Shown: positions 43,663 through 58,561, counted from the stretch's first letter. The stretch is DNA of 64,000 bases from Oleiphilaceae bacterium (GCA_965230795.1 OZ246020.1:1554585-1618584); one strand, 5' to 3'. Translations and numbers: made by a program. The notes: generated from the letters alone by a model not told the origin.

Positions 43663-43880
43663 AACTTCAAAGCTCCTTGTTTTTGTAAATCACAGTATTC
43701 CTTTTGGAAGCTGGGCGCAGTAGTGAGTAAGGTCCTGCATGTCCCGCTGTCTTTATCATTACCCGTTTACTCTTGCATCGTTGAGACATAGCGCTTTTAA
43801 AAGTCGATAAACAAGGTGATATCGAAGGCTGGTTTTGGTTTATCTAAATTAGACAAAAACGCTAGACCACAAAAATTATC

Positions 43881-44237
43881 TTAGATGGCATTGGATTCCG
43901 ACCATTCCCTGAGCTGCTCCAAAATGTCGAGGGCGGAGCGACCGAAGTCGCTTAATTCGTAGGTGACGGCCACAGGTCGCTCGTTGATGACTTTTCGAAT
44001 CACCATGTTTCTGGCTTCCAGTTCTTTCAGACGCTGATCAATCATTTTCTTGCTGGCGCCGCCCAGCATGCGGGTCAGATCATTGAATCGCACCGGTCCG
44101 TCTTTGAGGTGATAGATGATGGAGCCGGTCCACTTACCGCCGATAATGCGCATACCACGCTCGACCGAGCAGGGTTCCATGCAGGCGTTCAAAACTTTTT
44201 TTCGTCCTTTACTATCTGTTTCTACTCGAGATTTCAA
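43881..44237 (-). CDS. HxlR-family transcriptional regulator
   Basis: [36 protein letters not shown]...; winged-helix HxlR signature. Divergent from mdaB. Confidence 0.85.
43883..43920. repeat. right copy of ~38-bp direct repeat (functional 3' end of hxlR); right boundary of island 1
   Basis: See 28562-28600. It lies inside the last 13 codons of hxlR. Confidence 0.6.
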
Positions 44238-44254
44238 CGAAATTCCCTCATAAG

Positions 44255-44267
44255 TAACCAGGTTACC
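44255..44267. promoter_or_regulatory. 13-bp perfect palindrome GTAACCaGGTTAC in the hxlR-mdaB divergent region (candidate HxlR operator)
   Basis: Inverted repeat with a 1-nt spacer. A second GGTAACC...GGTTGAC half-site pair lies about 35 bp downstream. Confidence 0.35.
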
Positions 44268-44358
44268 AAAAGTATACTAATTGATTTAGATCTACAGGTA
44301 ACCAAAATATACCACTGGTTGACGAGATATTCCATGTTCAATAATCGAGGACAATCTA

Positions 44359-44942
44359 TGAGTAACATTCTGATCATCAACGCCCACCATCACTATCCCT
44401 TTTCCGAAGGCAAGCTGAATGCGGCGCTCGTTAATACGGCGCAGGAACTGTTGAAAGCCTCGGGGCACTCGACGCGGTTGGTGACGATTGATGAGGGCTG
44501 GCAAGTGGAACAGGAGCTGGAAAATCATCGCTGGGCGGATGTGGTGCTGTTGCAGACGCCGGTGAACTGGATGGGGGTTCCGTGGACCTTCAAGAAGTAC
44601 ATGGATGAAGTCTATACCGCAGGGATGGATGGGACGCTGTGCCACGGTGATGGCCGTAACTCGGATTCGCCCAAACAAAATTACGGCACCGGTGGCACCT
44701 TGAAGGGTAAGAAGTACATGTTGTCACTGACCTTTAACGCGCCGGAAGAAGCATTTAACGATCCACAGGAATATCTGTTTCAGGGTAAGAGTGTGGATGA
44801 TCTGTTTTTTCCCATGCATATGAATTTCCGCTTTTTCAATATGGAAGCGCTGGAGACTTTCGTCTGCTACGACGTGATGAAAAACGCGGATACGGAAAAC
44901 GACATGAAGCGTTTTGCTGGTCACCTTCAAGCGCACTTTTAA
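44359..44942 (+). CDS. mdaB: MdaB-type NAD(P)H:quinone oxidoreductase (flavodoxin-like fold)
   Basis: [24 protein letters not shown]...[27 protein letters not shown]...[22 protein letters not shown] aligns along its length with E. coli MdaB. The ATG at 44359 has a gagg RBS; the upstream ORF extension is rejected. Confidence 0.85.
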
Positions 44943-45026
44943 TTCCAGAAGGGATAGCGGCTCAGCATCTGTGAGCCGGATTGAGAGCAAGTCTGAATAA
45001 CATTTGAAGACCAACAGGACATTTAG

Positions 45027-45583
45027 ATGTTTACCTACCATGGTTTGAATTCTGCCCCGGAGCAATCCCGACCACTTGTCGAGCAGTCACTAAAAGGCTT
45101 CGGGATGTTGCCCAATCTGCACAGGATTCTGGCGGAAGCACCGGCCACCTATCAGGCCTATATCACAACATTTGAGCTGTTTATGAAGCAGACAACACTC
45201 AGCCCATTGGAGCAGCAGGTGGTATTCATGACTGCCAATTTTGAAAACAACTGCCATTACTGTGTGCCAGGACATACCGGATGATGCACGCGGGTAAGAT
45301 GCCGGAAGCCGTCATTGAAGCACTTCGGGAGGGGACACCAATATCGGACGAGAAATTACAGGCTCTGCATGATTTTGCCAAAGCCCTGCTGGACCAACGT
45401 GGTCATATCGGAGATGACAAGCTTCAAGCATTCTTAGATGCCGGCTACAGCAAGCGACAGGCTTTGGAAGTATTGACCGGTCTGGCCGCGAAACTCATTT
45501 CCAGCTTCACCAATGCCCTGGCGCATACGAAGCCGGACCAGGTATTTCAGCAATATGCCTGCACGCATCCGAGTGAGCGATAA
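45027..45583 (+). pseudogene. AhpD-like carboxymuconolactone decarboxylase family gene interrupted by a frameshift near 45280
   Basis: Two abutting ORFs (45027-45284 ending ...NCHYCVPGHTG*, and 45281-45583 starting MMHAGKMPEAVIEALREG) together reconstitute one AhpD-fold protein with its Cys-x-x-Cys/His motif. They are 1 nt out of frame. Confidence 0.55.
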
Positions 45584-46002
45584 CAGATCATCTGTTGGCA
45601 GGCAACGAGAAGAGTAGGGTGATGAGCGATACAACACCAATGCGATGGGCTGGAAGCTGGTATCCCAATTATTGTACCGCAAATTGCAATGGCGACCAGT
45701 TATCGGAAGCGCTGCAATCCAACGCCCACTTTTTCTATGATCGGAGGGTAGTCGATATTGATGACGAGCTGCCGAAACGGGGGTGAAGGACAAGCGGGGA
45801 TGTGGGCATCCATATCCTTGAGATAAGTACTGCTTGAACTATTTGTACGGTAACTGTGGTAACACCAGGAAACTTGAACTTGATCAAAACAGAATTTCTT
45901 TCACTTTTGTAACATAAGGCCCGCTTGCAGTTGGCTCCGCTATTCGGTGTCTAAAGGACGAGCAATAACAATAACCAGGATGACCGAATGTAAGGGGAGA
46001 TT

Positions 46003-46845
46003 ATGCGGTTCCTATTCCTTTCTTTTTTTATGCCTTTCTTTTTTGCTCTGACTGCCTGTAGCGGTGGTGGAGGCGGGAGCTCAGACAACAGTAATGCAGT
46101 GAAAACTGATACCGCTGTGCGCTTCCAGGGGCCGGCAAATGAACCGGCATTGATCCAGCAAAATTTTACATACAACGATATGCCCGTAGAGCTGAACTCT
46201 CGCACGCTGGGCTTTATTTATGATCAGGAAAGAAGGTCTTTGAGTTTTGAAGCGGATAAATCGGGTACGGTTGCCATTGTCCTGTCGAGCGACGCGGAAG
46301 ACTTGGATCTGGAAATCACGTCGTTTGATCTACAGAAATACAGCTATTCCTTCACTTCCGATGAAGCAGTGGTGTTTGAGGCAAAAGCGGGCACTGTATA
46401 CAGCATCGTGATTACATCATTTAATGGCGGGGGTAATTATTCGCTAAAGGTCGTACAAGGTAATCGAGAATCGTTAGGTTTGCGCGACAACGAGTTATAT
46501 GTACTTGCTTCGGGTAATGGAGAAGAGTCCTGTATATACGGTGATGGAAGAAGAGAAGTCTACCCATTCATTGCAACCTACGACTATATCTTCAATTTAG
46601 AAACGGGAGCGCTAAGGTTCTATTCAGAAGTATTGGACTATGATGTCGAACCGGAAGGCACCTTCGAGTATTACGGGTGGAGTGAGTATCCGGAATCTTT
46701 GCAGGGTTACAGGCTATATCAATACGCCGCTGAGCAGGGGTTTCATGGGCAGGAATTCTGGGTTTACTCTTATGATGGAGCAGTGCCGGAGGAGACAGTA
46801 GAGTGCATGGGTGAGGCATCATTTTCCGCCGACACCTTGCTCTGA
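46003..46845 (+). CDS. hypothetical lipoprotein (Gly-rich linker, beta-rich domain)
   Basis: Lipobox FFALTACSGGGGGSS; 280 aa; no recognisable catalytic motif. Confidence 0.45.
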   Translation: MRFLFLSFFMPFFFALTACSGGGGGSSDNSNAVKTDTAVRFQGPANEPALIQQNFTYNDMPVELNSRTLGFIYDQERRSLSFEADKSGTVAIVLSSDAEDLDLEITSFDLQKYSYSFTSDEAVVFEAKAGTVYSIVITSFNGGGNYSLKVVQGNRESLGLRDNELYVLASGNGEESCIYGDGRREVYPFIATYDYIFNLETGALRFYSEVLDYDVEPEGTFEYYGWSEYPESLQGYRLYQYAAEQGFHGQEFWVYSYDGAVPEETVECMGEASFSADTLL

Positions 46846-46930
46846 CAATCCGTCGATAATCAAGCCTAGCCGGGAGGTTGTGCAAAGTAGCTAGTTCGTT
46901 GCTTCGATTGCTACCATCCACTCTTGCGAC

Positions 46931-46984
46931 AAGCCCCGAACGGTATACGAGGCTTATTTTGTTCTTGGTAGCAAGGGGCGGATT
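46931..46984 (-). repeat. att-like repeat copy A: 35-nt tRNA 3'-flank plus 19 nt of tRNA-Met 3' end (CCA-acceptor-T stem)
   Basis: Matches 47171-47224 at 53 of 54 positions, then diverges. Confidence 0.55.
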
Positions 46985-47205
46985 ACTCGGGTCTGTGACC
47001 ATCGCCCTTCGGGCCATCGTCACTGCGTTCCGATGTTGTCTCGCAGTCTTTAAAATCAAGACTGCTCGGCTCGAACACTCCGGCCGAGAATCGTAGATTT
47101 TCGTCGTTCGACTGCACGTAAAGCTTTGCTTTGCTTTACAGGCGTTTGTCTAACCCTTCGTCGGTTCTCATCCGCATGCAAAAACAAAAAAGCCCCGTAC
47201 GGTAT

Positions 47206-47251
47206 ACGAGGCTTATTTTGTTCTTGGTAGCAAGGGGCGGATTCGAACCGC
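47206..47251 (-). repeat. att repeat copy B: 46-nt 3' fragment of tRNA-Met(CAU), running from anticodon loop to CCA, followed on the minus strand by a hairpin plus T-run terminator
   Basis: Reverse complement CTCATAATGCTGGGGTCGGCGGTTCGAATCCGCCCCTTGCTACCA contains anticodon loop CUCAUAA, T-arm GGCGG-TTCGAAT-CCGCC, and an acceptor 3' strand with A73-CCA. No matching 5' half is adjacent. It is identical to 54309-54354. Confidence 0.7.
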
Positions 47252-47578
47252 CGACCCCAGCATTATGAGTTTTAATTTGAAAACATAACTTTTTGATATT
47301 TATAGTTTTAGGTTGTGGCGATCGTACCAACTAACTGGAACTTACAGCAACGAGCTGCAGCGCTAACCCGCAAAATTCACGCATGAATTTGGGAATCCTC
47401 TTGGTTCTATAATTAAGATATCGAGTTATTCCTTGATATAAATCCTAGAAGCTTTTTTCTGTTGTTTTGACACCTGAGAAAATCATCTTTTTTGAAGTGT
47501 GCCAATTACTTGGTTGGTCTATCCATTGATCGGTCATATCCATACTTCGCTCTCGACTAGGGCATTGTAAACGAAGTG

Positions 47579-48082
47579 CTAAAACCGATAACTCATTGCC
47601 ACCTGGATACCATCTTCTTTAGGAGCGACTCTGACTTTTTTAGAGTTGATCTTTTTCCCTGTAATCTTTTCGATCGCCCATGAAGTTATAGCCATTCCAT
47701 GCCAATAGACCATGTTCTTTTGGAAACGCTCACGTTTGGAGTATTTAGGCTTCTTGAGCTCCCAGGCATTGTATTGGGCCATACTTAAAAACGATGTTCC
47801 CATTATTATGCTCTGTGTTTCGTTCTCGCCCGCGGCAAAGGCGAGAGGAGAGAGTAGGGTGCATACCCAACCGTAACCCTCTGGATGAGAGGCTGCCGAG
47901 GCAGCGTTGGCGGCTATGATCCCCTCCATTAGCGTGAACCCCAGTATGGCTTGTGGCAGGGAGAGTTCTTGCTTTTCTTGTCCGTTCGCCCAAGACGATG
48001 AACCAAAGAAAATCACCACAATAAGAAAAATATGTTTCATACAGACCTCATGAGAGTGTGAGACCCGGTGTTGCGGCCTCAC
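47579..48082 (-). CDS. hypothetical secreted protein
   Basis: Signal peptide (IFLIVVIFFGSSSWANG); 167 aa. Confidence 0.4.
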   Translation of the reverse strand: MRPQHRVSHSHEVCMKHIFLIVVIFFGSSSWANGQEKQELSLPQAILGFTLMEGIIAANAASAASHPEGYGWVCTLLSPLAFAAGENETQSIIMGTSFLSMAQYNAWELKKPKYSKRERFQKNMVYWHGMAITSWAIEKITGKKINSKKVRVAPKEDGIQVAMSYRF

Positions 48083-48094
48083 AATTAGATGTTT

Positions 48095-48790
48095 TCAAGA
48101 AGGGAGACGGGATTTGTGCTTCAGCCGCTCAAGGACAGCTTGTGCATCATGTTTTCCAGAGCGTATACCGGCCGATTTGACGCGTTGGTCCAAATCTTCT
48201 CCTTCGAGAGATTGGTCCACAGCGAGTAGCGCGTTGTTCAATGTTTGGTTTCGATGCTGTCGCTCTTGAATCGAACGAAGAGATTCATTGAGTTCAGTCA
48301 AAGCGCCATTTAAGCCCACCTGGCTTTTGCCATAGTTAAAACCAGATAATCGTTGCATCTCATTTGCCTTCAAAAGAACAAGATGTTGCTGATGGTTCCG
48401 GGTGACTCTGACCGCGTTCTTCAGATCTTTCTCTGTCCGATCTTCTAGAGCGTGAAGCTGCGAAAGTCGGTTTCTCATACTGCCAAGCGCGTCTTCGTCT
48501 TCAGCGATTTGCTCTGCCAAGGCATGGGCGAGCTCTGTGTCTTTCTCCAGCGCTTCCAGAGTTTGGGATTCGCGTCTTACGATTTCTGCCTCCTTTTCCT
48601 CTATTGAATCTTGTACGAGCGATATATCCGCTTTAATAGATGCCAGGTAATGTTTGCTCTGTTTGATCAGCGCTAAGGTCTCCCGTATTTCCTGCTCGAA
48701 GATCGGTATATCATTTCGGTTAATGAGCTCACGGACGGGCTCTTCCACTTTAGTTCGCATTAACAGTCTGAGTTTTGAATAGGTCGTCAT
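48095..48790 (-). CDS. PspA/IM30-family protein (second paralog, island-borne)
   Basis: 231-aa helical protein. The N-terminus (MTTYSKLRLLMRTKVEEPVRELINRNDIPIFEQEIRETLALIKQ) and overall heptad pattern match PspA/LiaH. Confidence 0.7.
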   Translation of the reverse strand: MTTYSKLRLLMRTKVEEPVRELINRNDIPIFEQEIRETLALIKQSKHYLASIKADISLVQDSIEEKEAEIVRRESQTLEALEKDTELAHALAEQIAEDEDALGSMRNRLSQLHALEDRTEKDLKNAVRVTRNHQQHLVLLKANEMQRLSGFNYGKSQVGLNGALTELNESLRSIQERQHRNQTLNNALLAVDQSLEGEDLDQRVKSAGIRSGKHDAQAVLERLKHKSRLPS

Positions 48791-48793
48791 GGT

Positions 48794-49063
48794 TTACTCC
48801 GAATACTCTTTCATTAGTTGTTGGGCTTTAGCATCTGAGATGCGGTTAATGAGTCTCTCGCTCTCGTGCTGATCACGCATGGTCTTTGATAGGGTGATTG
48901 TGCTGCTGACAAGGAACAGTGCACACAAGGAAAAATAGGCCTTGACGATAAAGTCGATCGGGCTCAGAACTATACCGCCCAGCATCGCGCATAAAGCGAT
49001 AGCGAAAGATGCTTTGACGAAGAACAGCCATCCGGCTGAATTGCTTTGGATTTGTTCGTTCAT
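48794..49063 (-). CDS. YiaA/YiaB-like two-helix membrane protein
   Basis: MNEQIQSNSAGWLFFVKASFAIALCAMLGGIVLSPIDFIVKAYFSLCALFLVSSTITLSKTMRDQHE has two TM helices with the YiaAB-type pattern. It lies 4 nt downstream of pspA-like. The start was chosen at the internal MNEQ. Confidence 0.5.
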   Translation of the reverse strand: MNEQIQSNSAGWLFFVKASFAIALCAMLGGIVLSPIDFIVKAYFSLCALFLVSSTITLSKTMRDQHESERLINRISDAKAQQLMKEYSE

Positions 49064-49197
49064 GGTTGTGTTGTCTCCTCTAATTGACAGGTTTAAGGTA
49101 TTTATATGCAGGACGTAATCCAACAAAAAGGAAAAATGGAGCGCTAGAAGCTACAATAGGTATTGAAATACGATACCTATGAGGCGATGAAGACAAT

Positions 49198-49947
49198 ATG
49201 GCGCAAACGACGACGATGCTCCGGGCATTAAAGCGTCTTCTTAAGCGACACGGCTACCGGTATTCAGATGTAGCGAATACGCTCAAAATCAGTGAATCAC
49301 GCGTGAAATACCTTTTTTCTCAGGAAGACTTTTCACTTAGACGCATAGACGCGATCTGTCAGATGATGGGGATAGAAATGAGTGATGTATTTGCCGAGAT
49401 GAGAGAGTCGGAACAGATCAAGTCACTCACTATGGAACAAGAAAGAGAACTAGTTTCAGACACGTCCCTATTGCTTGTGGCGAATAGTGTCCTGAATCTA
49501 TGGAGCTTCGAAGACATTGTTGGCACCTACAATTTTGAAGAAGCAGAGTTGATTCAGCATCTAGCGAAACTAGACCGTCTTAAGCTGATTCATTTGTTGC
49601 CAAAGAATCGAATCAAGCTACTTGTGGGACGCAATTTTAGTTGGATAAAGAATGGACCTATCAATCAGTTCTTTGAGGAGCAAGTGAGAAAAGAGTTCTT
49701 TGATTCGCGTTTCAACGGGCCGGGAGAGAAACGCATGTTTTTGGTAGGGATGCTTTCCAGAGAATCGAATGCCATTTTTCAGAGGAAATTGAACAACCTC
49801 TCTGATGAATTTCATTCGTTGCACTATGAGGATGAAAAGCTACCCGTATCCGAACGTTTTGGAACCAGTGTTGTTGTGGGTATGAGGCTATGGGAGCCTG
49901 CGGAATTTGAAGCGCGAAGGAAAAATAAAGATGTTCGTGAATTCTGA
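49198..49947 (+). CDS. HTH (XRE/Cro-like) domain transcriptional regulator
   Basis: N-terminal HTH (LKRHGYRYSDVANTLKISESRVKYLFSQEDFSLRRIDAICQMMGI) plus a 170-aa C-terminal domain. Divergent from the pspA-like operon. Confidence 0.5.
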   Translation: MAQTTTMLRALKRLLKRHGYRYSDVANTLKISESRVKYLFSQEDFSLRRIDAICQMMGIEMSDVFAEMRESEQIKSLTMEQERELVSDTSLLLVANSVLNLWSFEDIVGTYNFEEAELIQHLAKLDRLKLIHLLPKNRIKLLVGRNFSWIKNGPINQFFEEQVRKEFFDSRFNGPGEKRMFLVGMLSRESNAIFQRKLNNLSDEFHSLHYEDEKLPVSERFGTSVVVGMRLWEPAEFEARRKNKDVREF

Positions 49948-50153
49948 CTCAATAGTTGCGCAAGATCTGTTGGTACATGTCGTGACTATAAATTTGTAGA
50001 AGCTTTTTTAGTCAGCAGTTGAAAGACTTTGAGCGAGTAATTTGACCGTTTGGTTTTTCCATTTTGAACTCCGACACAAGAGCGAAAACGCGAAAGTGCT
50101 AATCTTCTTCATGATATTTTTGTCGGAAAACTGAAGCGGGAGTTTAGCAAAAC

Positions 50154-50915
50154 GTGAACAAGGGAATCGCAAATCTGATAAGGATCATTGTTTTTTTGGT
50201 GTTTGCCTGGGGATCAACGTTGGCCTATGCGTCAAGCGAAAAGGGTGCAGACTCTGAGACGGAAACCGATCGAGCTGAAGCATTGGCTAACAAAAAAGCC
50301 TCGCTGGAAAAGCAGTACGGAGCGCACGCAAATAAGGTTTCCAAAGAGTTTGTTTTGGAGCGTGATCAGGAGGGCATGAAAGGTTATTGCCGAACGAACA
50401 CGAAGTCTGGCTTTAAATACTGCAAAATTGAGGCATTGTTGGAGACAACGGTAGACGAATTGATGGGCATCAACACCGATCCTGAAGGCCTTAAGGAATG
50501 GATGACTACCGTGGCGTATTCTAATCAGATCGAGAGGCTGAGCGATACCAACTATGTGAATCATCTCCGCTATGATGTTCCATGGCCATTCCAAGACAGA
50601 GAGTCGGCGACCCGTTCCATTATCAAAGGATTCGGTAATGGAGGAAAAAGAATCGAATTCAAAACAGTCAAAAATGCCATCGATGTTTTGCCGAATAACG
50701 TGGAAATGGAGTTGGTCATCGGCTACTGGCAGTTTGAGCCAGTAGATCAAGGAGTGGTCAATGTTGAATATGCAACAATGGTAAATCCTGGGGGAAATCT
50801 AGAACCGATTTTCTACAATCTCGAGGCATTGAATATTGCCTGGGAGACCATGAAAGGGTTGAAGCGAGTGATTGACAGCGGAAAGTATAAGAATCAGAGA
50901 TTGGTTCGAAAGTAA
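50154..50915 (+). CDS. exported START/SRPBCC-like lipid-binding domain protein
   Basis: Signal peptide, then about 200 aa with a START-like pattern (YCRTNTKSGFKYCKIEALLETTVDELMGINTDPEGLKEWMTT...RYDVPWPFQDRESATRS). GTG start. Confidence 0.4.
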   Translation: MNKGIANLIRIIVFLVFAWGSTLAYASSEKGADSETETDRAEALANKKASLEKQYGAHANKVSKEFVLERDQEGMKGYCRTNTKSGFKYCKIEALLETTVDELMGINTDPEGLKEWMTTVAYSNQIERLSDTNYVNHLRYDVPWPFQDRESATRSIIKGFGNGGKRIEFKTVKNAIDVLPNNVEMELVIGYWQFEPVDQGVVNVEYATMVNPGGNLEPIFYNLEALNIAWETMKGLKRVIDSGKYKNQRLVRK

Positions 50916-51018
50916 TTTGTTTTTTGAACGTTTGTAATGACCTAGAGAACATACACACAACCGTATAGCACATTCAATAGTTTTACTCTGCACGCATTGC
51001 AGTTGAGGCTTCCATTAA

Positions 51019-51603
51019 TTAAAGATCTTCGATATTTTTTCTTAACTCAATCAGCTGATCAAATAGTTCCTCTCTGAGACATAGAGCTTTTGACTTTAGA
51101 TCTTGCAATTCTTTTGTGTTCTCAAGGTCAACCGGATTAATCGGCGCGAGGGCTTTCCGAATGTGTTCAAATTTGTCAATGACGGGAGGTGAAAAATAGA
51201 CTCTTACATACGCACCATATTTGCTAATACCAGCACTTAAAGCACGGGCGTCGGCCGCCAGCTTTTGAATTTGCGATTCCGAGCGGTCAGGCGAATTCTT
51301 GATTAGAATAATTTTCTCACAATGATCTATAAACTGGGAAATTGTGGCGATTAGTTCAGAGGAAGATTCGATTTTTTTGTCAAAATATTTACTGCTTTGT
51401 TCGCTCTCAAATTTGAGTTGCCAATATTGGTAGTTTAAAACACCTAGTACCATCCCCGTGAATAGAACTAGGATTGATTTTTCGATCAACATTTTGCCGA
51501 TTTCGTAAAATCTTTCATCTGATTCGGAAAGCAGATCCGCAAACCTGTAAATTTGCGTTTTTATTCTAGAAAATTGAGCGTTTACCCTGTCAAATAGTGT
51601 CAT
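51019..51603 (-). CDS. hypothetical protein
   Basis: 194-aa ORF with one TM helix; no recognisable motif. Confidence 0.35.
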   Translation of the reverse strand: MTLFDRVNAQFSRIKTQIYRFADLLSESDERFYEIGKMLIEKSILVLFTGMVLGVLNYQYWQLKFESEQSSKYFDKKIESSSELIATISQFIDHCEKIILIKNSPDRSESQIQKLAADARALSAGISKYGAYVRVYFSPPVIDKFEHIRKALAPINPVDLENTKELQDLKSKALCLREELFDQLIELRKNIEDL

Positions 51604-51773
51604 ACTGGTTTCTCAATTCTGTTTTGTTTGACCATCAAAAAATGATGACATTAGTGTTTTTCATTTAATCCAGTTATCCAAGAATATACAGATATACCGT
51701 GACCTCCCCCCGAAAAATAGAACCATGACATGGATGAGATTTCCGGTTACTTTAGCCAAAAGGAAATCTCAAT

Positions 51774-52040
51774 ATGAAGAAAAAGCGTTACACAGAAGAA
51801 CAGATCATTGGTGCGATCAAAGAGCATGAGTCGGGCGTAAAAGTTGACGACATATGCCGCCGTATGAATATCTCCACGGGCACGTTTTACAACTGGCGGT
51901 CCAAGTATGCCGGCCTGGAAGTGAACGAAGCCAAGCGATTAAAAGAGCTGGAAACGGAGAATAACAAGCTCAAGAAACTGCTCGCGGAGAAGCTCTTAGA
52001 GAACGAGGCCATGAAAGATGTGCTCTCAAAAAAGTGGTAA
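51774..52040 (+). CDS. IS3-family transposase OrfA (HTH, leucine zipper)
   Basis: MKKKRYTEEQIIGAIKEHESGVKV...FYNWRSKYAGLEVNEAKRLKELETENNKLKKLLAEK. Confidence 0.85.
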   Translation: MKKKRYTEEQIIGAIKEHESGVKVDDICRRMNISTGTFYNWRSKYAGLEVNEAKRLKELETENNKLKKLLAEKLLENEAMKDVLSKKW

Positions 52041-52852
52041 AGCCTGCGAGCCGTAAAGGCATTGCGACTCATCTGGTCTCGGTACATCGACTGAGCGAGC
52101 GGCGCGCTTGTTGGCTTGCGAGTATTAGCCGAACAGCCTATCGCTATAACCCGATACCGCGGACGGATCAAGCGCTCAGAGCACGTTTGATTGAGCTTGC
52201 AGGCAAACATCAGGGACTCGGTTATGAGATGCTGCATGGCATGCTCAGGAACGAAGGACTCGTCATCAACGAGAAGCGCACCTATCGGCTTTACAAGGAG
52301 GAAAACCTTCAGCTACGTATCCGCAAGAGAAAGAAGCTGAAACGACCACGACAGCCTATCATGGTTCCGATTTACCCTAATGTCCGCTGGTCGATGGATT
52401 TTGTTTCAGACCAGCTTAGCAACGGGCGAAGGTTTCGCGTGCTGAATGTAAAAGACGATTATTCAAAGGAACTCATTGGTCAGCTGACAGCGTACTCGAT
52501 TTCTGGCCAGCAGGTTGCCAGGTTCCTTGATCAGCTCATCGACCAACGTGCAGCACCGGACCAAATCACGTGTGATAACGGGACCGAGTTTACCTGCAAG
52601 GCGATGTTCTTCTGGCAGAAAGAATCAGGGGTAAAGCTGGCATTTATCCAGCCAGGAAAGCCAACACAAAATGCGTTTGTAGAAAGCTTGAACGGAAAAT
52701 TTAGAAACGAGTGTCTCAACAGGCATTGGTTTCGGAGCTTGGACGAAGCGAAAGAAATCATCGATGAGTGGCGACACCATTACAACCATGAGCGACCACA
52801 TAGCGCTCTAAATTTTATGCCTCCGGCAGTGTTTGCAGCGAGGGCAGCATGA
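52034..52852 (+). CDS. IS3-family transposase OrfB (DDE integrase core), expressed by -1 frameshift from orfA
   Basis: rve domain (WSMDFVSDQL...ITCDNGTEFTC...YNHERPHSAL). In the -1 frame relative to orfA, downstream of AAAAAAG. Confidence 0.85.
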   Translation: MVKPASRKGIATHLVSVHRLSERRACWLASISRTAYRYNPIPRTDQALRARLIELAGKHQGLGYEMLHGMLRNEGLVINEKRTYRLYKEENLQLRIRKRKKLKRPRQPIMVPIYPNVRWSMDFVSDQLSNGRRFRVLNVKDDYSKELIGQLTAYSISGQQVARFLDQLIDQRAAPDQITCDNGTEFTCKAMFFWQKESGVKLAFIQPGKPTQNAFVESLNGKFRNECLNRHWFRSLDEAKEIIDEWRHHYNHERPHSALNFMPPAVFAARAA

Positions 52853-52930
52853 TGGAAATTTCATCCAAAGCGTGGTTCTAAACAGGGGTGGAGGTCAAGT
52901 GGTGCCCAAGTAAAGCGGGAAGTCGAAATA

Positions 52931-53292
52931 TGAAGCATTCTAATTTAGCTCCCAGAATACTTCGGGTTCGCGATGCCAGAAATTACTGTGGGATGTGCGA
53001 GCGATTGTTTAATCGGCTAATTAGGCCCTATCTCACTGAAATTGTGATCGGAATTCAGGGCGTTGGTTTTGATCGTATTGAATTGGATTGCGTACTGGAG
53101 GATTATATTCAGCGGTACGGTCGCCCTCCTAAAGCGAGACTTGAGGAGAACGACAAATGCAGAAAAGAAAACAAGCAATTGCTGGCCTATACAAAAGGAA
53201 AGGTGTCTGGCACATCGACAAAACGATTGGTGGAGTCAGAATTTGCGAAAGCGCTAGAACGAGTAAAAAGGAAGAGGCCGAACGTTTCTTAG
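52931..53292 (+). CDS. putative AlpA/excisionase-like small DNA-binding protein (overlaps integrase start; extent uncertain)
   Basis: LRVRDARNYCGMCERLFNRLIRPYLTEIVIGIQGVGFDRIELDCVLEDYI resembles AlpA/Xis-type HTH proteins and sits immediately upstream of int. The 3' 135 nt overlap int in another frame. Confidence 0.35.
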
Positions 53293-54281
53293 CAAAACGG
53301 ATGGAAGAGCATCGTCTGGCAAGCGTTTATGGTGTGCGTCCCAAGCGGGTGTTCAGGCAGGCTGCGACATACTATTTGAATGAGCATGCTCACAAGAAGA
53401 GTATTGATCGTGATGCCCAAGACTTGAAGTTGCTTGATCCTTGGATAGGTGAACTTGAACTTCCGAAAATCCATGATGGAACGCTTAAAGCATTCATCGA
53501 CGAAAGGAAAAAGCAGGGAGTAAAGTCTCTTACCGTTAGGCGAAGTCTAGCCGTGGTTCGAAGGATACTAAACCTAGCTGCGATGAAGTGGAGAGACGAA
53601 TACGGTTTGACTTGGTTGGAAGCTCCGCCGATGCTGACTTTTCCTGATTGGGGGGATAGGAGAGAGCCTCACCCGATCACATGGGAAGAGCAAACATTAT
53701 TCTTCGAAGCTCTGCCAGAGCATCTTCGTGAGATGTGTTTGTATAAGGTGAACACTGGCTGCAGGGAGCAAGAAGTGTGTCAGCTTCGTTGGGATTGGGA
53801 GTTTGAGATTCCAGAGTTAAACACATCTGTGTTCGTGCTTCCGGGCTCGTTAACTAAGAATAACAAGGAGCGTGTTGTGGTTCTTAACTCGGTCGCTCGG
53901 GCCGTCATTAATCGACAGCGAGGTAAACATCCGGACCGGGTGTTTACCTATAAGGGAAGGCCCACCAATTCCATGAAGAATTCAAGTTGGAAACGAATTC
54001 GGAGTGAGCTGGGTTTGGAGGCGGTGAGATTACACGATCTTCGCCATACGGCAGGTCGCCGGTTAAGGGCGGCAGGGGTTTCTCTGGAGACCCGTAAAGA
54101 TATATTGGGACATGAGGGTGGCAATATCACCACGCACTATTCGATGCCTGAAATTCAGGAGTTGATTGATGCGGTGGAGAAGATTGCATTTGAGCCAAAG
54201 CACTCAACGCCATCCCTTCGAGTAATTCGTATCGGGGGAATGTCCCGCAAAACTCCCGCAAGGGAAATAAAAAAGGCCTAG
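53157..54281 (+). CDS. int: tyrosine site-specific integrase (phage/P4-type)
   Basis: N-terminal arm-binding-like GLYKRKGVWHID. Catalytic region (HDLRHTAGRRLRAAGVSLETRKDILGHEGGNITTHYS) with the R...HxxR...Y arrangement. Its 3' end lies 27 bp from the tRNA-Met att repeat. Confidence 0.9.
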   Translation: MQKRKQAIAGLYKRKGVWHIDKTIGGVRICESARTSKKEEAERFLAKRMEEHRLASVYGVRPKRVFRQAATYYLNEHAHKKSIDRDAQDLKLLDPWIGELELPKIHDGTLKAFIDERKKQGVKSLTVRRSLAVVRRILNLAAMKWRDEYGLTWLEAPPMLTFPDWGDRREPHPITWEEQTLFFEALPEHLREMCLYKVNTGCREQEVCQLRWDWEFEIPELNTSVFVLPGSLTKNNKERVVVLNSVARAVINRQRGKHPDRVFTYKGRPTNSMKNSSWKRIRSELGLEAVRLHDLRHTAGRRLRAAGVSLETRKDILGHEGGNITTHYSMPEIQELIDAVEKIAFEPKHSTPSLRVIRIGGMSRKTPAREIKKA

Positions 54282-54308
54282 CCGAATGGGCTAAGCCTTT
54301 GAATCTCG

Positions 54309-54354
54309 TGGTAGCAAGGGGCGGATTCGAACCGCCGACCCCAGCATTATGAGT
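54309..54354 (-). repeat. att repeat copy C: 46-nt tRNA-Met(CAU) 3' fragment identical to 47206-47251
   Basis: Exact 46-nt identity with copy B; flanks differ on both sides; adjacent to the int 3' end. Confidence 0.7.
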
Positions 54355-54548
54355 AACACGGGTCTACGTAAGTAGTTGATTTATATAAAGCGGGATGCCG
54401 CGAACCATACCAACTATCAACAACTAACGATAACCGCACATAACAAAATCACGCAGAATTAACGCAAGAGGTTTTAGCGCGAAGCATCGTTACAGGCGAA
54501 TGCAGTGCCGCGGAATGAGTTAAGCATCAGAGCCATGTTAGGTTTTAT

Positions 54549-55022
54549 TTAAGTCGCCCAGAAAATTTCTTGTAGATCTATATCTAAATCCGCATCCCTC
54601 GGTCGATCATTTACTGTTCCAGTAAATATAATCTTAGAGCCTACTTTCAGTTGATGAAGCAGTTTTAAGACCTGAGGCTCTTTGACATGTAAATCTATAA
54701 CCGTGTCGTCGGATATGACCTTTATTTTGTGATCAGACAAAGGGCTCTGTTCTTCGTATATAGCAGCCTTCCATGTAACGTTTTTTCCATTAAATTTTGC
54801 TGGTTCTCTGACGTTCTTTCTAATCAACTCAGGACTTAGCTCACTAAACTTAACTTGGCTAATATCCTTCAAGAGAATATGTTCTCCTATAACAAAGTGA
54901 CGAATTTCAGATATAGACGAAATCAAGCTTCCAGTACCAATGATAATGCCTGCAATCAATGCCACGGCCGCGATCGGTTTTATATTTAGCAACCGATTTA
55001 CCATCTGTTCCTTTTTATCCAT
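54549..55022 (-). CDS. hypothetical membrane-anchored protein
   Basis: N-terminal TM (IAAVALIAGIIIGTGSLIS), 157 aa. Confidence 0.4.
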   Translation of the reverse strand: MDKKEQMVNRLLNIKPIAAVALIAGIIIGTGSLISSISEIRHFVIGEHILLKDISQVKFSELSPELIRKNVREPAKFNGKNVTWKAAIYEEQSPLSDHKIKVISDDTVIDLHVKEPQVLKLLHQLKVGSKIIFTGTVNDRPRDADLDIDLQEIFWAT

Positions 55023-55137
55023 AAGTAAAATCCCTCTTAGTCTGTTATCGAAACCAATAACTCCTAGCTTATAGGAGCATCATAAAAAGCCCGGAGCGTA
55101 GGCGATTCCTGTGCAGCCAATTGTTAGATTGCATATC

Positions 55138-55255
55138 TGACCTCCATCCCGGTTTAGAACCACGCTTTGGATGAAATTTCCATCAAGCTGCCTTGGCTGC
55201 GAACACAGCCGGAGGCAAAAAATTAGAGAGCTGTGCGGACCCGCATGCAGGGTGT
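55138..55255 (-). mobile_element. remnant of the right end (about 118 bp) of an IS3-family element related to the IS at 51700-52897
   Basis: TGACCTCCATCCCGGTTTAGAACCACGCTTTGGATGAAATTTCCATCAAGCTGCC...CCGGAGGCAAAAAATTAGAG is about 85% identical to the reverse complement of 52780-52897 (IRR plus the orfB 3' end), truncated. Confidence 0.6.
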
Positions 55256-55292
55256 TGTGGGGACCGGGGGCTAGATACCCCCGGTTACCCGA

Positions 55293-56162
55293 TTAACACG
55301 GCAGCAGAGCCGCCAAACCGGAAAGGAATGGCGTGAAAACAGTAATGTGTGAAGATATATTTTGCATGAAGTCCTTGTATACTTCCGAAAAATTACCATT
55401 CTCATGCGCAACTGCCAACGCCTGCGTATTATCTATAAGCTTTTGCGAATCTTCATCTCGAAGCCCAGCAGATTTAATAGCCTGGATCATTTCACTGAAA
55501 ATTTCAGGTTCATTGTAAGACTGACTAACTGTAGCAGTAGCATTATCTGAATTGATATTAATGCTTGATCCTGAGACCCCTGATACGTTGATCGTTTGCT
55601 GTTTATCACCCATGATTTCGATTCCATTTTCTAGTTTGTATAGATTGCTAGACTTGAGTAAGTTTAATGTAACTCTTATTGCCGCCAGAACTTTCTCTTG
55701 CTTTTTAAAAAGATGATACATTTGGTCGACAGACCAAAGCCTAACGTCATTCTTTTTACAAACTTCTACGGCTATGTCAGGTATTTGTTCATCGTAATTG
55801 CCAAATACCCAAGTACCATCAAATCCTTCAACTACAGAAGTCAACGTGGGGAACCTGCTGAAGTCATAGTTTATTTCAGCCAATGTTCCTTCCATATAGA
55901 TAGCCATATCACGCCCTGTACTATATAGGGCTTCAACTTTGTATCTTTCCGTATGCGGAACTCTAGATATAAATCTGAAATCTTCCTGATTCTTGAGGTG
56001 ACTCCAGAACTTGTTGTGCTCTGAAAACTCCTTAGAAAACGACAGCAATCTGGCTATATATGAAGACACTTCTTCAAAGTCTTTTCTGATTTCCAATTCA
56101 TGCCTCAAATTTCGTATTAGTGTTAACAGTGTGTTTAACGGACCCTTCGGTCCGCTAAACAC
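55293..56162 (-). CDS. hypothetical protein (start uncertain; N-terminal codons overlap a palindromic repeat)
   Basis: 289-aa ORF with no recognisable motif. The first ~12 codons are encoded by the 42-bp repeat element, so the true start is probably downstream. Confidence 0.35.
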   Translation of the reverse strand: MFSGPKGPLNTLLTLIRNLRHELEIRKDFEEVSSYIARLLSFSKEFSEHNKFWSHLKNQEDFRFISRVPHTERYKVEALYSTGRDMAIYMEGTLAEINYDFSRFPTLTSVVEGFDGTWVFGNYDEQIPDIAVEVCKKNDVRLWSVDQMYHLFKKQEKVLAAIRVTLNLLKSSNLYKLENGIEIMGDKQQTINVSGVSGSSININSDNATATVSQSYNEPEIFSEMIQAIKSAGLRDEDSQKLIDNTQALAVAHENGNFSEVYKDFMQNISSHITVFTPFLSGLAALLPC

Positions 56163-56165
56163 TTT
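56124..56165. repeat. 42-bp palindromic repeat element, copy 1 (14-bp stem, CTTC loop)
   Basis: TAACAGTGTGTTTAACGGACCCTTCGGTCCGCTAAACACTTT is identical to 58262-58303. The stem GTGTTTAACGGACC/GGTCCGCTAAACAC has one mismatch and is followed here by a T5 run. Confidence 0.6.
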
Positions 56166-57352
56166 TTAGGAGCTGCTTGGCTTCTGATATGAACACTTTT
56201 ACATTCCACAAAAGCTTTACACCTTTCCAGTAAGTTGTAGTCAAATAACTCAGGTTTTCCTGAACTTCCCTTTAAGAGGGTGATTAGCTCCCGGAAGTCT
56301 AACAAATTGAAAAAGGCACCGGTTGATTGAATGGCATCAATGAGCAGGTTCTCTACTTCACTCCAGTCACCTGAGTGATGCAACTCTGTTACCAATACAA
56401 TGCAGTGGGGAGCGTTTTCCCTCTCGATATTAAGCTCGTTTCCTTCCGCATCAAAGATTGCATCCCCTCTGGCAATAGCTTTGTAAGCTCCGACCAGCTG
56501 ACCAATGGCTTTCTTAGCCTGTTTTTGAACACCAAGCACTCTCCTTTCTAGGCTTCTATCTAAACCCATCCTTAGTATAGATAAGTCCTTAGCTTCAATC
56601 AGAAAGCTGCCATATTGGTAAAAAGCAAGCACATCTGTAAGCTCTCGTGTCTTTTCCCCTATTTTTACCTGTGGGCTCTTGTATAAGGTTAATGGAAAAA
56701 CAGATTCAAGTGATGCCCATATAGCCCTTTCAAAGATTTCACCTTCTTCTGGCTCATTTAGAACTACAGAATGACTTTCTCGAAAGCCAATGAAAGTATT
56801 ATTGTTAATTCTCCAAGGCTCGATGCTTAAAGATATTGTTGAGAATGGAATTTCTACAGCATTAGGGCACGTTCTTGTTTTGTCAGTAGAATAATCAAAA
56901 CAGTCTAATGACAAGGAGCATGCGTTATCAAAACTGCCCACGTACAATGCTTCTATATCACCGAGTAATTTTTTTGCTCTATCTGAATCACTATCTGTGA
57001 CTGAGACGTTACTCCAGGCAACACATACATCCATTTCATTAAAAAGAAAAACTGGCGAGGATCTCGCTTCCAGAAACTGCTCTATAGCTTGATGCTCCTC
57101 TTCATGTCGCACTGCACCAGATATGAATAATGCAGCATCAGGAATATCAAAAATTCGAATTCCTGAACACAGGTAGGAGTCTTTCAAACCAAATATAATT
57201 TCTGCACTACATCCTTCCAAGAGGGCCTTTATTGATGGTGTTGGTGCTTTTATTAATATTGCTATCTCTCTCCCATCATTTGCAGGAACAACCCATAGAG
57301 AGGCCGCCTCTGAACGCATTTCTTTATGAACTCTTTCACTTGGCATATGCAT
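56135..57352 (-). CDS. hypothetical protein (405 aa)
   Basis: Long ORF with lower-GC codon usage consistent with island cargo; no recognisable catalytic motif. Confidence 0.4.
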   Translation of the reverse strand: MHMPSERVHKEMRSEAASLWVVPANDGREIAILIKAPTPSIKALLEGCSAEIIFGLKDSYLCSGIRIFDIPDAALFISGAVRHEEEHQAIEQFLEARSSPVFLFNEMDVCVAWSNVSVTDSDSDRAKKLLGDIEALYVGSFDNACSLSLDCFDYSTDKTRTCPNAVEIPFSTISLSIEPWRINNNTFIGFRESHSVVLNEPEEGEIFERAIWASLESVFPLTLYKSPQVKIGEKTRELTDVLAFYQYGSFLIEAKDLSILRMGLDRSLERRVLGVQKQAKKAIGQLVGAYKAIARGDAIFDAEGNELNIERENAPHCIVLVTELHHSGDWSEVENLLIDAIQSTGAFFNLLDFRELITLLKGSSGKPELFDYNLLERCKAFVECKSVHIRSQAAPKKCLADRRVR

Positions 57353-57431
57353 GCAACTGATGGGCTCCTAACGCCCGCATTTGCGGCTAGCTTGAAGCGC
57401 AGCGTAAAGCCAGTCAGACAACATGCGTTTG

Positions 57432-58241
57432 TTAGGCATTTTCTATCTTATTTCTCGGAATAAATCTTAATTCGATATCAGCAGGACACCGATCAGTTTT
57501 CTTCTTCATCATGTGCTTAACTTTTGAAAGTTCTGCCTCATCAAAATAGTAAACCACTGCGAGAATTAGCTTGAATTTTGACTCAAAGAATCTATCGGCA
57601 ATGACTGCCTGATACAAAATCCTATCTAGAATCATCATTAAGGAATGCGGGGTTCTGAGAGCCTTAACCTCCAAGAAGGTAAATTTACCGGAAGGTGCTT
57701 GTAAAAATGCGTCAAAGTTTGCTTCAGTTTCGCCAATACCAACATTATTTTCTGCTTCAACTTTTAGTTCCGCTGCAATTTTATTTATAACTGCACTTTC
57801 TATATTCTTGAGCTCTTCTCGGAATTCACGATGTGATTGCTGGCGTGTCTCTCTTTCAGAGTCATCTGGGCTACGACTTTCTTGTTGAGGTCTAGAATTG
57901 TTTTCTGTAGTAGTTTCACCAAGGGATTCGGAAACTTCTTTTTCAAGCTTTTCCTCTTGCTCTTCAGGCGAGAGGGTTCTTAAAAAAGATTTGTCATCTT
58001 TGAAGTCGCCTGGTGCGTAGAGTTTTCCATGATGATTAGTCACTAATTTATAAAAAGTAATCAGCACTAAAATCGGGAAAACCACAATAAAAATAATTAT
58101 TGGCCATCTCTCAGCCACAGTAAGCTTATCTGCTGCTGAATCCAATAACAGGCTAGCAAAGCCATAAATCAGAGATATGAATAATGCAATGATTCCCAGC
58201 GGGTTTCTTGCAAAATCCTTAGCTCCTTTTAGAAAATCCAT
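57432..58241 (-). CDS. hypothetical membrane protein (two N-terminal TM helices, acidic/charged C-terminal domain)
   Basis: LGIIALFISLIYGFASLLL and WPIIIFIVVFPILVLITFY TM segments, then a charged helical region. Confidence 0.4.
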   Translation of the reverse strand: MDFLKGAKDFARNPLGIIALFISLIYGFASLLLDSAADKLTVAERWPIIIFIVVFPILVLITFYKLVTNHHGKLYAPGDFKDDKSFLRTLSPEEQEEKLEKEVSESLGETTTENNSRPQQESRSPDDSERETRQQSHREFREELKNIESAVINKIAAELKVEAENNVGIGETEANFDAFLQAPSGKFTFLEVKALRTPHSLMMILDRILYQAVIADRFFESKFKLILAVVYYFDEAELSKVKHMMKKKTDRCPADIELRFIPRNKIENA

Positions 58242-58261
58242 ACTTTAATCCTAGTGATGCC

Positions 58262-58303
58262 TAACAGTGTGTTTAACGGACCCTTCGGTCCGCTAAACAC
58301 TTT
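58262..58303. repeat. 42-bp palindromic repeat element, copy 2
   Basis: Identical to 56124-56165; lies just upstream of the minus-strand gene start at 58241. Confidence 0.6.
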
Positions 58304-58561
58304 ATCTACGTTTTTCTCAGTTTAAGTTATTCTCAATATTATCAGGTGTTTATCCAAGCCGGTGAAACATTCATCATTGGAAAAGGCGGACCCTTTTAAA
58401 AAGATGTAGTACAAACAAAGCTACTGACGCAAATGCGATACGAAATACTGCCTGCTTCTCGATTAGGTGCGTTTTGTCACAGTGTTTGGGTGACCTATGC
58501 AAAGGACTTCCATCTATCAGCTTGATAGGGTGGAGAACCACAAATCAAATGGAGATTGATC

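Follow-up and report, generated by a model that had tools for sequence, protein, structure and literature searches.

P4-type integrases use the T-loop of a tRNA gene as crossover point, and the stacking of several islands in a single tRNA gene is known from tandem islands of the Islander/TIGER type. In the sublocation classes of tRNA-targeting integrases that Williams is said to have set out in 2002, crossover in the anticodon loop is reportedly one class, and the T-loop reportedly the second classical position. Another kind of tRNA-linked repeat is found in E. coli, where the repeats at tyrT and tyrV are 178 bp long and the tRNA and RtT are co-transcribed at tyrT. RtT repeats (rttR, Rfam RF00391) follow tyrT and tyrV (Bösl & Kersten 1991, as cited in PMC3318445).

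The window analysed here is a stretch of 64,000 nt from an Oleiphilaceae bacterium (GCA_965230795.1, OZ246020.1:1554585-1618584). The evidence supports two phage-derived integrative elements inserted in tandem into a single elongator tRNA-Met(CAU) gene, with 46-nt copies of the tRNA 3' end as att cores. Together with an RtT-like unit in the native trailer this makes up our joint explanation, to which we assign a probability of roughly 0.8. The tandem elements are a textbook arrangement, and the RtT-like unit is one modest twist.

tRNA-Met fragments in the window

The window holds three repeat copies, all of them real and far above chance expectation: the 19-mer TGGTAGCAAGGGGCGGATT occurs three times against 0.03 expected, and the 27-mer continuing from it twice against 0 expected. 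The two long copies and the trailer of the first are as follows.

47225-47270, minus strand: 46-nt tRNA-Met(CAU) 3' fragment, anticodon loop to CCA; displaced chromosomal copy, B-core-P' junction type
54309-54354, minus strand: second 46-nt tRNA-Met fragment; attP-like hybrid flanked by the P arm of island 1 and, on the opposite side, by the P' arm of prophage 2
47180-47214, minus strand: native intrinsic terminator of the tRNA-Met gene, 11-bp hairpin plus TTTTGTTTTT, from a terminator scan

The long copies agree at 46 of 46 positions (100%), and no further copy of the 46-mer was found in the window. A first-pass annotation had already reported this exact identity, but placed the first copy at 47206-47251, which is 19 nt off. 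The shorter copy (46931-46984) agrees with 47190-47243 in 53 of its 54 nt and is composed of 35 nt of tRNA trailer and the 19 nt of the tRNA 3' end, as had been described. The native trailer is 92% identical to that of the intact tRNA-Met in the Oleiphilaceae MAG L020.

No tRNA was detected in the window by ARAGORN, or by an Rfam scan at the gathering threshold, in line with the earlier statement that no copy is a complete tRNA. Of 22 matches to the 46-mer in other (gammaproteobacterial) genomes, 21 coincide exactly with the 3' end of an intact 77-nt tRNA-Met(CAT); the remaining match, a displaced partial copy, shares its contig with one of the 21. The best E. coli matches are annotated tRNA-Met, i.e. 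the elongator, and read directly, the anticodon stem is without the three G-C pairs of the initiator. The elongator-type identity first proposed is thereby confirmed.

Two elements and their attachment sites

Between the two long copies lies a discrete segment with its own integrase.

47271-54308: island 1, 7,038 bp, bounded by the 46-nt repeats
51718-52880, plus strand: IS3-family insertion sequence, orfA 51774-52040 and orfB 52034-52852
52888-53292, plus strand: phage-family ORF (phrog_13517), directly 5' of the integrase gene, whose start it overlaps
53157-54281, plus strand: tyrosine integrase int1, 374 aa (Pfam PF00589, phrog_1)
54272-54300, minus strand: element-borne terminator-like hairpin (12 bp) with T-tail, just 3' of the tRNA fragment and overlapping the integrase stop codon

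Besides these, island 1 encodes a 167-aa ORF, a PspA-like protein, YiaAB, an HTH repressor-like protein (49198-49947) and two unknown ORFs. None of its ORFs is a structural or replication gene, and it is therefore a prophage remnant or a satellite-like island; the evidence supports a discrete 7.0-kb element of this kind. The first reading of a discrete island with repeat bounds and its own integrase was thus right in kind, while its limits of 47252-54308 (7.1 kb) had to be corrected. The IS3 element consists of orfA (HTH_Tnp_1) and orfB (rve) within terminal inverted repeats of 27 nt that are 81% matched, and no clean target duplication was seen at its ends. The phrog_13517 segment is conserved 5' of the integrase homologues, and we consider this ORF a candidate directionality factor.

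The int1 protein scores 67.1 bits against Pfam PF00589 (curated cut-off 27.1) and E = 6e-49 against the phrog_1 integrase. When aligned to the XerA-like structure PDB 4A8E its TGCR, K..K.R, HDLRH, GHE and THY motifs all align, and judged by sequence int1 is catalytically complete, with the R-K-H-R-H-Y set present. As first noted, the gene is convergent with the tRNA fragment, its stop codon ending at 54281, 27 nt before the copy at 54309. Homologues with 60-82% identity are convergent on an intact tRNA-Met at four loci (L014, L028, L029 and L030), where this tRNA is situated 3' of ychF-pth-rplY. The int1 clade counts about 4,000 homologues, mainly from marine and environmental metagenome sources, and we know of no characterised member; the closest integrases of cultured phages are only 42-45% identical to int1.

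Further, both long copies are flanked by arms with paired repeats.

47271-47400: P' arm of island 1, paired repeats CCCGCAA (47367) and CACGCAT (47378), 11 bp apart
54244-54261, plus strand: P-arm paired repeats CCCGCAA (54244, 54255), 11 bp apart, within the integrase 3' end
54355-54480: P' arm of prophage 2, paired repeats CACGCAG (54450) and AACGCAA (54461), 11 bp apart

The 47271-47400 arm can be aligned both with its counterpart beyond 54354 and with the arm of the attP in phage contig L025, which has the order int, attP with a tRNA-Met 3' fragment starting at the anticodon loop, and tail genes. Mean column identity in this three-way alignment is 75%, with numerous differences between the two window arms. 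Pairs of (C/A)(C/A)CGCA (CNCGCA) are found on both window P' arms about 97-107 nt from the core, against a motif background of 0.94 per kb; there are none on the native (trailer) side of the core. The same paired repeats recur at equivalent places in L025 and L014, both of which also have a P-arm pair upstream of the core. Conserved arm motifs at fixed distances from the core suggest a lambda-type attP with putative arm sites.

The DNA to the right of the second copy carries phage genes.

54549-59904: accessory (moron-like) region of prophage 2, including the phrog_30399 and phrog_26238 ORFs
60123-63053, minus strand: J-like central tail fibre of prophage 2, PHROG match
63053-63631, minus strand: tail protein of prophage 2, PHROG match
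63624-63992, minus strand: distal tail protein of prophage 2, PHROG match

The phrog_30399 and phrog_26238 ORFs are bracketed by a 42-nt perfect hairpin repeat (56124-56165 and 58262-58303). The tail genes of L025 are homologous to window positions 60966-63947, and the prophage 2 tail proteins are collinear with, and 42-60% identical to, these genes beside the L025 attP. This supports the assignment of 54355-64000 to the tail-gene end of a second prophage, as suggested at first. A further integrase, P0002, shares 70% identity with int1 and 77% with the integrase of L025; it is probably the second integrase, and its place would be at the far end of prophage 2, outside the window.

We propose the following history. 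The tRNA-Met gene would lie on the minus strand, and each element would have been inserted by a tyrosine integrase crossing over at the anticodon loop. As each element would carry its own copy of the last 46 nt, the tRNA would be rebuilt at the integrase-proximal end, and the earlier 3' piece would be pushed downstream with each insertion. On the plus strand the order is native trailer, core 47225-47270, P' arm, island 1 (7.0 kb, with the IS3), int1, core 54309-54354, P' arm, prophage 2 accessory genes and its tail genes, among them the J-like fibre gene. Outside the window there would follow the remainder of prophage 2, the second integrase and a core joined to the tRNA 5' half; the geometry of the four related loci and of one phage attP likewise points to an intact tRNA beyond 64 kb. 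Island 1 was perhaps inserted before prophage 2, and the elements may be able to excise.

The RtT-like unit and the short third copy

The native trailer carries a further structured sequence, on the same strand as the tRNA fragment and directly 3' of it and its terminator.

46966-47189, minus strand: RtT-like unit, 224 nt, running from 47189 to 46966 (Rfam RF00391 and nhmmer profiles)
46966-46984, minus strand: copy of the last 19 nt of tRNA-Met, AATCCGCCCCTTGCTACCA, from T-loop to CCA, at the 3' end of the RtT-like unit
46931-46955, minus strand: second trailer-hairpin copy AAGCCTCGTATACCGTTCGGGGCTT, within the 54-nt repeat; its stem has a single mismatch, and a T-run is lacking on this strand

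RtT (RF00391) is the top Rfam match of the window and falls here. Its 39.8 bits remain below the gathering cut-off (45), with an E-value of 4.6e-6 for a 901-nt segment and of 3.4e-4 when all of the window is searched. For comparison we used contig L036 (IMG/VR UViG_2521172693_000001, Pseudomonas-like), in which a displaced tRNA-Ser fragment and a trailer hairpin are found with four tandem RtT units; an array this regular cannot be a set of integration scars. The nhmmer profiles built without the tRNA end gave E = 0.0058 (E. coli), 3.6e-4 (E. coli and L036) and 0.0017 (L036 only). With each profile the sole significant match ran from 47062/47044 to 46986/46985, ending 0-1 nt from the 19-mer and in register with it. 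The motif GGCCCGAAGGGCGA lies in the body 17 nt before AATCC, an offset equal to that in E. coli RtT, and the 12-mer CCCGAAGGGCGA and GAGT are also at offsets matching E. coli. It should be noted that pairwise similarity of the body to E. coli is modest (p ~0.003-0.04).

The MFE fold (z = -3.7) pairs GCA.GCGGAU with AUCCGC....UGC. In the Rfam alignment the 5' strand is placed elsewhere and these pairs of the outer helix are broken, owing to the extra length of the window unit (about 90 nt). The predicted closing helix tracks the tRNA type, being GGGGAAGGAU/AUCCUUCCCC for Tyr, GAGGGAU/AUCCCUC for Ser and GCGGAU/AUCCGC for Met. The 19 nt of RtT-type units start exactly at the T-loop crossover point.

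A second 19-mer was absent from other genomes with the same tRNA-Met, and a scan of metagenomes and viral contigs with the junction 20-mer gave nothing relevant. On the plus strand the trailer-hairpin copy at 46931-46955 is followed by ATTTTGTTCTT, and hence it could terminate the convergent lipoprotein gene 46003-46845. In the joint explanation an RtT-like unit (~224 nt, structured) would sit immediately 3' of the native terminator and end in the 19-nt tRNA copy, with the second trailer hairpin next to it; this 19-nt end and the repeated hairpin together would give the 54-nt third copy 46931-46984. It seems that the short copy is the end of an RtT-like unit in the tRNA's own trailer, and is not best read as an integration scar.

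The first-pass annotation had read all three copies as att sites left by serial integrations into one tRNA gene. Two stacked elements are retained from this, but a third integration is not favoured. To keep it, a third element with a T-loop-type integrase and a 54-nt identity block would have to have decayed to 205 bp (46985-47189). The short copy does begin exactly in the T-loop (TTCGA|ATCC), the 54-nt direct repeat flanks a discrete segment, and tRNA-Met is clearly a hot spot of integration, both in this genome and in a MAG of Thiogranum. Yet the 205 bp are homologous to RtT bodies of E. coli and the Pseudomonas-like contig, in register with the 19-mer, and such relatives form regular tandem arrays of 3-4 units without an integrase. 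The native-type T-run, as in L020, is on the tRNA-proximal copy and not on the distal one, the opposite of what a T-loop crossover predicts. As neither an integrase nor arm-type repeats were found for a third element, and the phage search shows no phage with RtT-like sequence, we regard this reading as unlikely.

Still less probable, in our view, is a single element, or a tandem double lysogen of one phage in which island 1 arose from prophage 2 by duplication and deletion. The junction of int1, core, P' arm, accessory genes and J gene is collinear with the contiguous int-attP-tail segment of L025, and the integrases of both elements are from one family. But one prophage has just one P' arm and the window has two, and these have diverged (at the three-way mean column identity given above); the accessory genes beside each arm are unrelated, and the candidate second integrase P0002 is only 70% identical to int1. 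The first annotation had also named a generic dispersed repeat as the outcome to guard against. A dispersed repeat or chance match with no link to a tRNA gene draws its sole support from the fact that the window lacks an intact tRNA; chance alone would give zero matches, no extra copies occur in the window, and the 46-mer lies within intact tRNA-Met at 21 of its 22 genomic matches, the last being the displaced partial copy. We consider it effectively refuted by the chance expectation and the tRNA-Met context.

RtT-type cases have been seen at Tyr (E. coli), Ser (the Pseudomonas-like contig) and Met (the window), with a 5' strand that co-varies with the tRNA T-stem. We speculate, quite tentatively, that RtT-type units are a general tRNA-trailer module that in every case copies the last 19 nt of the adjoining tRNA, possibly as domesticated or decoy att-like sites or as products of T-loop-directed insertion. 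If true, they would be no enterobacterial tyrT curiosity, and in this genome stacked phage elements would have cut the RtT-like unit off from the tRNA promoter.

Comparison with known systems

The array shows no essential difference from integrative elements of the anticodon-loop class or from tandem islands. As in these known systems, the identity block runs from anticodon loop to CCA over 46 nt, and the integrase adjoins the tRNA-proximal att and is convergent on it. The native trailer likewise keeps the displaced 3' fragment, and a second element in the rebuilt tRNA gives an attP-like internal junction. The integrases of Pseudomonas phage phiPSA1 and Achromobacter phage CF418P1 are the closest from cultured phages and belong to the int1 family (42-45% identity over 95% of the length). 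In these phages, as in island 1, the integrase gene precedes a tRNA 3' fragment that is encoded on the other strand. Their fragment is from another tRNA, ending ...GTCCCGACCA, and that of island 1 is from tRNA-Met; target specificity has therefore shifted within the integrase family.

Like E. coli RtT, the window unit is directly 3' of the tRNA on the same strand and ends in exactly its last 19 nt including CCA. The body motifs GGAUGAGAAC, GCGAGA.A.C, CCCGAAGGGCGA and GAGUA are at matching offsets, the 5' strand is predicted to pair with the tRNA-derived end, and the trailer is repeated after the unit. In contrast to E. coli, the linked tRNA is Met and not Tyr, the unit is about 90 nt longer and scores below the Rfam cut-off, and there are 1.2 units here compared with 3.14 and a spacer copy. 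Unlike at tyrT, an intrinsic terminator sits between tRNA and unit, and the inserted elements part the unit from the tRNA promoter, which would be at least 17 kb away.

The layout of L036 is like that of the window: a phage-like integrative element, a tRNA 3' fragment (anticodon loop to CCA), a trailer hairpin and RtT units, each closing with the 19-nt tRNA end and then a hairpin. It differs in having four units that recur about every 184 nt, linked to tRNA-Ser in a genome of 64% G+C, and two of these units pass the Rfam cut-off at 54 bits, compared with 39.8 for the window unit.

Repeats of the tRNA-Met 3' end and the integrase that targets it

The 19-mer TGGTAGCAAGGGGCGGATT, which runs from the T-loop to the CCA end, occurs three times in the window (46966, 47225 and 54309) against 0.03 occurrences by chance, and the 27-mer adjoining it occurs twice (47244 and 54328) with 0 expected. 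The repeat finder returned a 46-49-nt pair (47222/47225-47270 and 54306/54309-54354), of which 46 nt are identical, along with a 54-nt pair (46931-46984 and 47190-47243) in which 53 of the 54 positions agree. The first-pass annotation had located the copies at 54309-54354 and 46931-46984 correctly, but its 47206-47251 was 19 nt too low and is 47225-47270. ARAGORN detected no tRNA in the window, nor did Rfam at the gathering threshold.

The minus-strand sequence of the 46-mer is ACTCATAATGCTGGGGTCGGCGGTTCGAATCCGCCCCTTGCTACCA. Scanning one genome per species gave 22 exact matches, 21 of them the 3'-terminal 46 nt of an intact 77-nt tRNA-Met(CAT) in hosts including Hahella, Marinobacter, Oleiphilaceae, Thiogranum and Thiohalobacter MAGs, which bears out the earlier reading of the repeats as a tRNA-Met(CAU) 3' end. 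The 22nd is a displaced partial copy downstream of an intact gene on a Thiogranum contig, and is another island occupying the same tRNA-Met site. In that genome (Thiogranum sp. BWSM_145, L008 and L012; JASBSS010000038, 33995-42194) the partial copy is 49 nt long and lies 8.1 kb past the intact gene; the sole integrase-like match between the two copies is distant (28% identity), hence a different element uses the same anticodon-loop site.

The full tRNA gene shares 84-89% identity with E. coli genes that are annotated as tRNA-Met, not fMet or Ile, and its anticodon stem (CAGCA/UGCUG) lacks the initiator signature, which identifies it as the elongator tRNA-Met. In most genomes it lies ~3.7 kb downstream of tRNA-Gln, after rplY-pth-ychF; the empty-site comparison found no flanking genes in common with the window among the 22 loci. 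The 46-mer has no exact match in IMG/VR, and the tRNA fragments of related phages are host-specific versions.

The plus-strand ORF at 53157-54281 (int1) encodes a tyrosine recombinase (Pfam PF00589, 67 bits; phrog_1 match); in an alignment with PDB 4A8E every catalytic residue has its counterpart. As first annotated, int1 and the tRNA fragment converge, with 27 nt between the int1 stop codon and the 54309 copy. Among its more than 4,000 homologues, those in four chromosomal loci (L014, L028 from Mangrovitalea sediminis, L029 and L030; 60-82% identity) all have an intact tRNA-Met at the end of the integrase gene. In the 41.6-kb phage-like contig L025, the integrase (68% identical to int1) is followed by a 45-nt tRNA-Met 3' fragment starting from the anticodon loop, CsrA, a J-like tail fibre and tail genes, and these tail genes match window positions 60966-63947 at 42-60% protein identity in the same order. 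The integrases of the cultured phages phiPSA1 and CF418P1 are more distant than that of L025 (42-45% identity), and their fragment is from a different tRNA. For a large uncharacterised integrase clade, most homologues of which come from marine and environmental metagenomes, this defines elongator tRNA-Met, at its anticodon loop, as the target and provides candidate arm sites.

The island adjoining the tRNA-Met integrase in L029 (217-9678) and L030 (1-9678) also carries an integron-type integrase (Phage_int_SAM_4 and PF00589) and a series of small cassette-like ORFs, including Hfx_Cass5, TIR_2 and Imm33.

Two stacked elements and the rest of the window

Features of the first element, island 1
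47271-54308 (7,038 bp): island 1, with the integrase, an upstream phage-family ORF, HTH repressor-like, PspA-like and YiaAB genes and several unknowns
51718-52880: IS3 element of island 1

Beyond the right-hand end of each 46-mer (from 47271 and from 54355), ~115 nt align with the attP arm of L025. Each such P' arm (the arm opposite the integrase) holds two (C/A)(C/A)CGCA repeats, spaced 11 bp apart at ~97-107 nt from the core. An integrase-side pair is found at 54244 and 54255, with counterparts in L025 and L014, while the native side (46900-47225) has none, against a background of 0.94 per kb per strand. From the arm alignment and the repeat pairs, 47225-47270 reads as a chromosome-core-P' junction and 54309-54354 as an attP-like P-core-P' junction, the product expected if a second integration had entered the rebuilt tRNA.

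The discrete island proposed earlier between the 46-mers stands, with its own integrase and P' arm, but begins at 47271, not 47252. No structural genes were found in it, and its gene content points to a prophage remnant or satellite-like island. The assignment of 54355 onward to a second, prophage element also holds: its own P' arm is followed by ~5.5 kb of accessory genes and then minus-strand tail genes, the DNA of which has no match in cultured phages. By the geometry of the integrase family, a second integrase and the intact tRNA are predicted beyond 64 kb. The database protein P0002 (70% identity to int1, 77% to the L025 integrase) would fit this second integrase, as the contig on which it is recorded has the length of the one with int1 (4,268,394 bp), and the intact 77-nt tRNA-Met(CAT) would read GGCAAGGTAGCTCAGTTGGTTAGAGCACAGC followed by the 46-mer. 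Clean boundaries are thereby set for the 7.0-kb island and the prophage, and positions are predicted for the functional tRNA-Met and second integrase.

Just past the CCA of the 54309 copy, the island-borne trailer (54291-54308) is similar to the native tRNA-Met trailers in MAGs of Thiogranum, Marinobacter and Thiohalobacter (92-95% over 61-64 nt, tRNA part included), and this likeness to other genera suggests that other hosts shaped the attP segment. Two ORFs of the prophage accessory region, phrog_30399 and phrog_26238, lie between the copies of a 42-nt perfect direct repeat with a long hairpin (56124-56165 and 58262-58303), which resembles a bidirectional terminator repeated on either side of a moron cassette.

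Left of the elements, G+C falls at 28 kb from ~0.55 to ~0.46 and stays low (~28000-46900). This region encodes BacA (DUF2170), PspA, two unknowns, an 1,800-aa DUF3686 AAA ATPase, a rhomboid protease, an M90 peptidase with a SEC-C motif, a zinc-ribbon protein and a PLD nuclease-like protein. Neither an integrase nor an att remnant was found in it, and the search for a fourth att remnant came up empty both at the 28-kb boundary and across the rest of the window; the region is possibly an older island at this same hot spot. A predicted lipoprotein at 46003-46845 (signal peptide and LTACS), left of the third copy, is an orphan with no homologue but itself among 5.8 billion protein clusters. Further left, 4957-7782 holds a complete HvfA/HvfB/HvfC/HvfX cluster for an oxazolone/thioamide RiPP metallophore, and the tandem DNA repeat at 5101-5366 is due to the KCGExKCG repeats of the Hvf precursor.

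The third copy of the tRNA end

Features left of the 47225 core
47189 to 46966 (224 nt), minus strand: RtT-like segment, the last 19 nt of which are the tRNA 3' end repeat
46965 to 46931, minus strand: second copy of the 10-nt spacer and hairpin, after the RtT-like segment

Left of 47225 lies the native trailer. Including its hairpin and T-run, it shares 92% identity with that of an intact tRNA-Met in an Oleiphilaceae MAG (L020), and it scans as an intrinsic terminator. The best Rfam match anywhere in the window is to the tRNA-linked repeat RtT (RF00391) at 46966-47124, minus strand, with E = 3.4e-4 (whole window, all families) and 39.8 bits, which is below the Rfam cut-off of 45. As the tRNA-like end could inflate this score, nhmmer profiles of RtT bodies were built without the 19 nt and searched against 128 kb. 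Their only significant match directly adjoins the 19-mer, and the end of the profile is in register with it; E is 0.0058 with the E. coli profile, 3.6e-4 with E. coli and the IMG/VR contig L036 combined, and 0.0017 with L036 by itself. In pairwise comparison with E. coli alone the similarity is modest; CCCGAAGGGCGA, preceded by GAGT, lies 17 nt before AATCC in both the window unit and E. coli RtT. In the predicted fold GCA.GCGGAU closes with AUCCGC....UGC (z = -3.7). The RNAalifold structure for E. coli and L036 units aligned with MAFFT was set aside, being unlike that of Rfam.

None of the 22 tRNA-Met loci has a second 19-mer, nor was there an RtT match in 7 of them. In metagenomes the junction 20-mer matched once, by chance, and in viral contigs not at all; blastn of the unit against E. 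coli genomes and phages returned nothing useful, and the only match of the E. coli RtT sequence to phages was a Salmonella genomic contig. Extension of the 54-nt repeat into a second decayed unit was not significant (p = 0.32).

The third copy had been counted as one more of the serial integrations. A decayed T-loop-type integration is the less likely reading: the 19 nt do begin in the T-loop, but the native-type T-run is then on the wrong copy. We consider an RtT-like tRNA-trailer repeat the better explanation on the basis of homology, so that serial integration holds for two of the three copies, those with cores and arms. It should be noted that a short tRNA 3'-end copy beside a tRNA-borne island is thus not automatically an att scar.

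Both ACTCGGGTCTG, after the 19-mer (46985-46995), and AACACGGGTCTAC, after the 46-mer at 54354 (54355-54368), contain CGGGTCT; for ACTCGGGTCTG the likeness is explained by RtT homology, for AACACGGGTCTAC it may be chance.

Comparison with known systems

Around tyrT/tyrV, E. coli K-12 carries four RtT units, all of which end in the 3'-terminal 19 nt of tRNA-Tyr. The predicted closing helix of the window unit parallels GGGGAAGGAU/AUCCUUCCCC of E. coli RtT; the window unit is ~90 nt longer and is preceded by a terminator. A motif scan of viral contigs led to L036 (UViG_2521172693_000001), from a genome of 64% G+C with Pseudomonas-type REP sequences. Its layout is the same as in the window: a phage-like element is followed by a 3' fragment that inspection identifies as tRNA-Ser, then by a trailer hairpin and RtT units. 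Four units stand in tandem, repeating every ~184 nt, and two of these score above the Rfam cut-off at 54 bits; every unit has AATCCCTCCCTCTCCGCCA and a hairpin at its end, and the 5' strand GAGGGAU matches its tRNA. Such a regular tandem array cannot be a set of integration scars. Past the tRNA-Ser-like fragment and the array, L036 (9930-12453) also has a minus-strand piece of another tRNA and a P4-type integrase, hence two islands face each other across the array.

Tandem integrative elements at tRNA genes, with anticodon-loop identity blocks, are reportedly well known from Williams 2002 and tandem-island surveys, and the window is a clean new example, from a poorly sampled gammaproteobacterium whose best housekeeping-protein homologues show 84% identity or less. 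By its sequence, the RtT-like unit appears to add a new member, divergent and tRNA-Met-linked, to an RNA family that is known but has been little studied, and along with the tRNA-Ser array it hints that this family is broader than its E. coli description.
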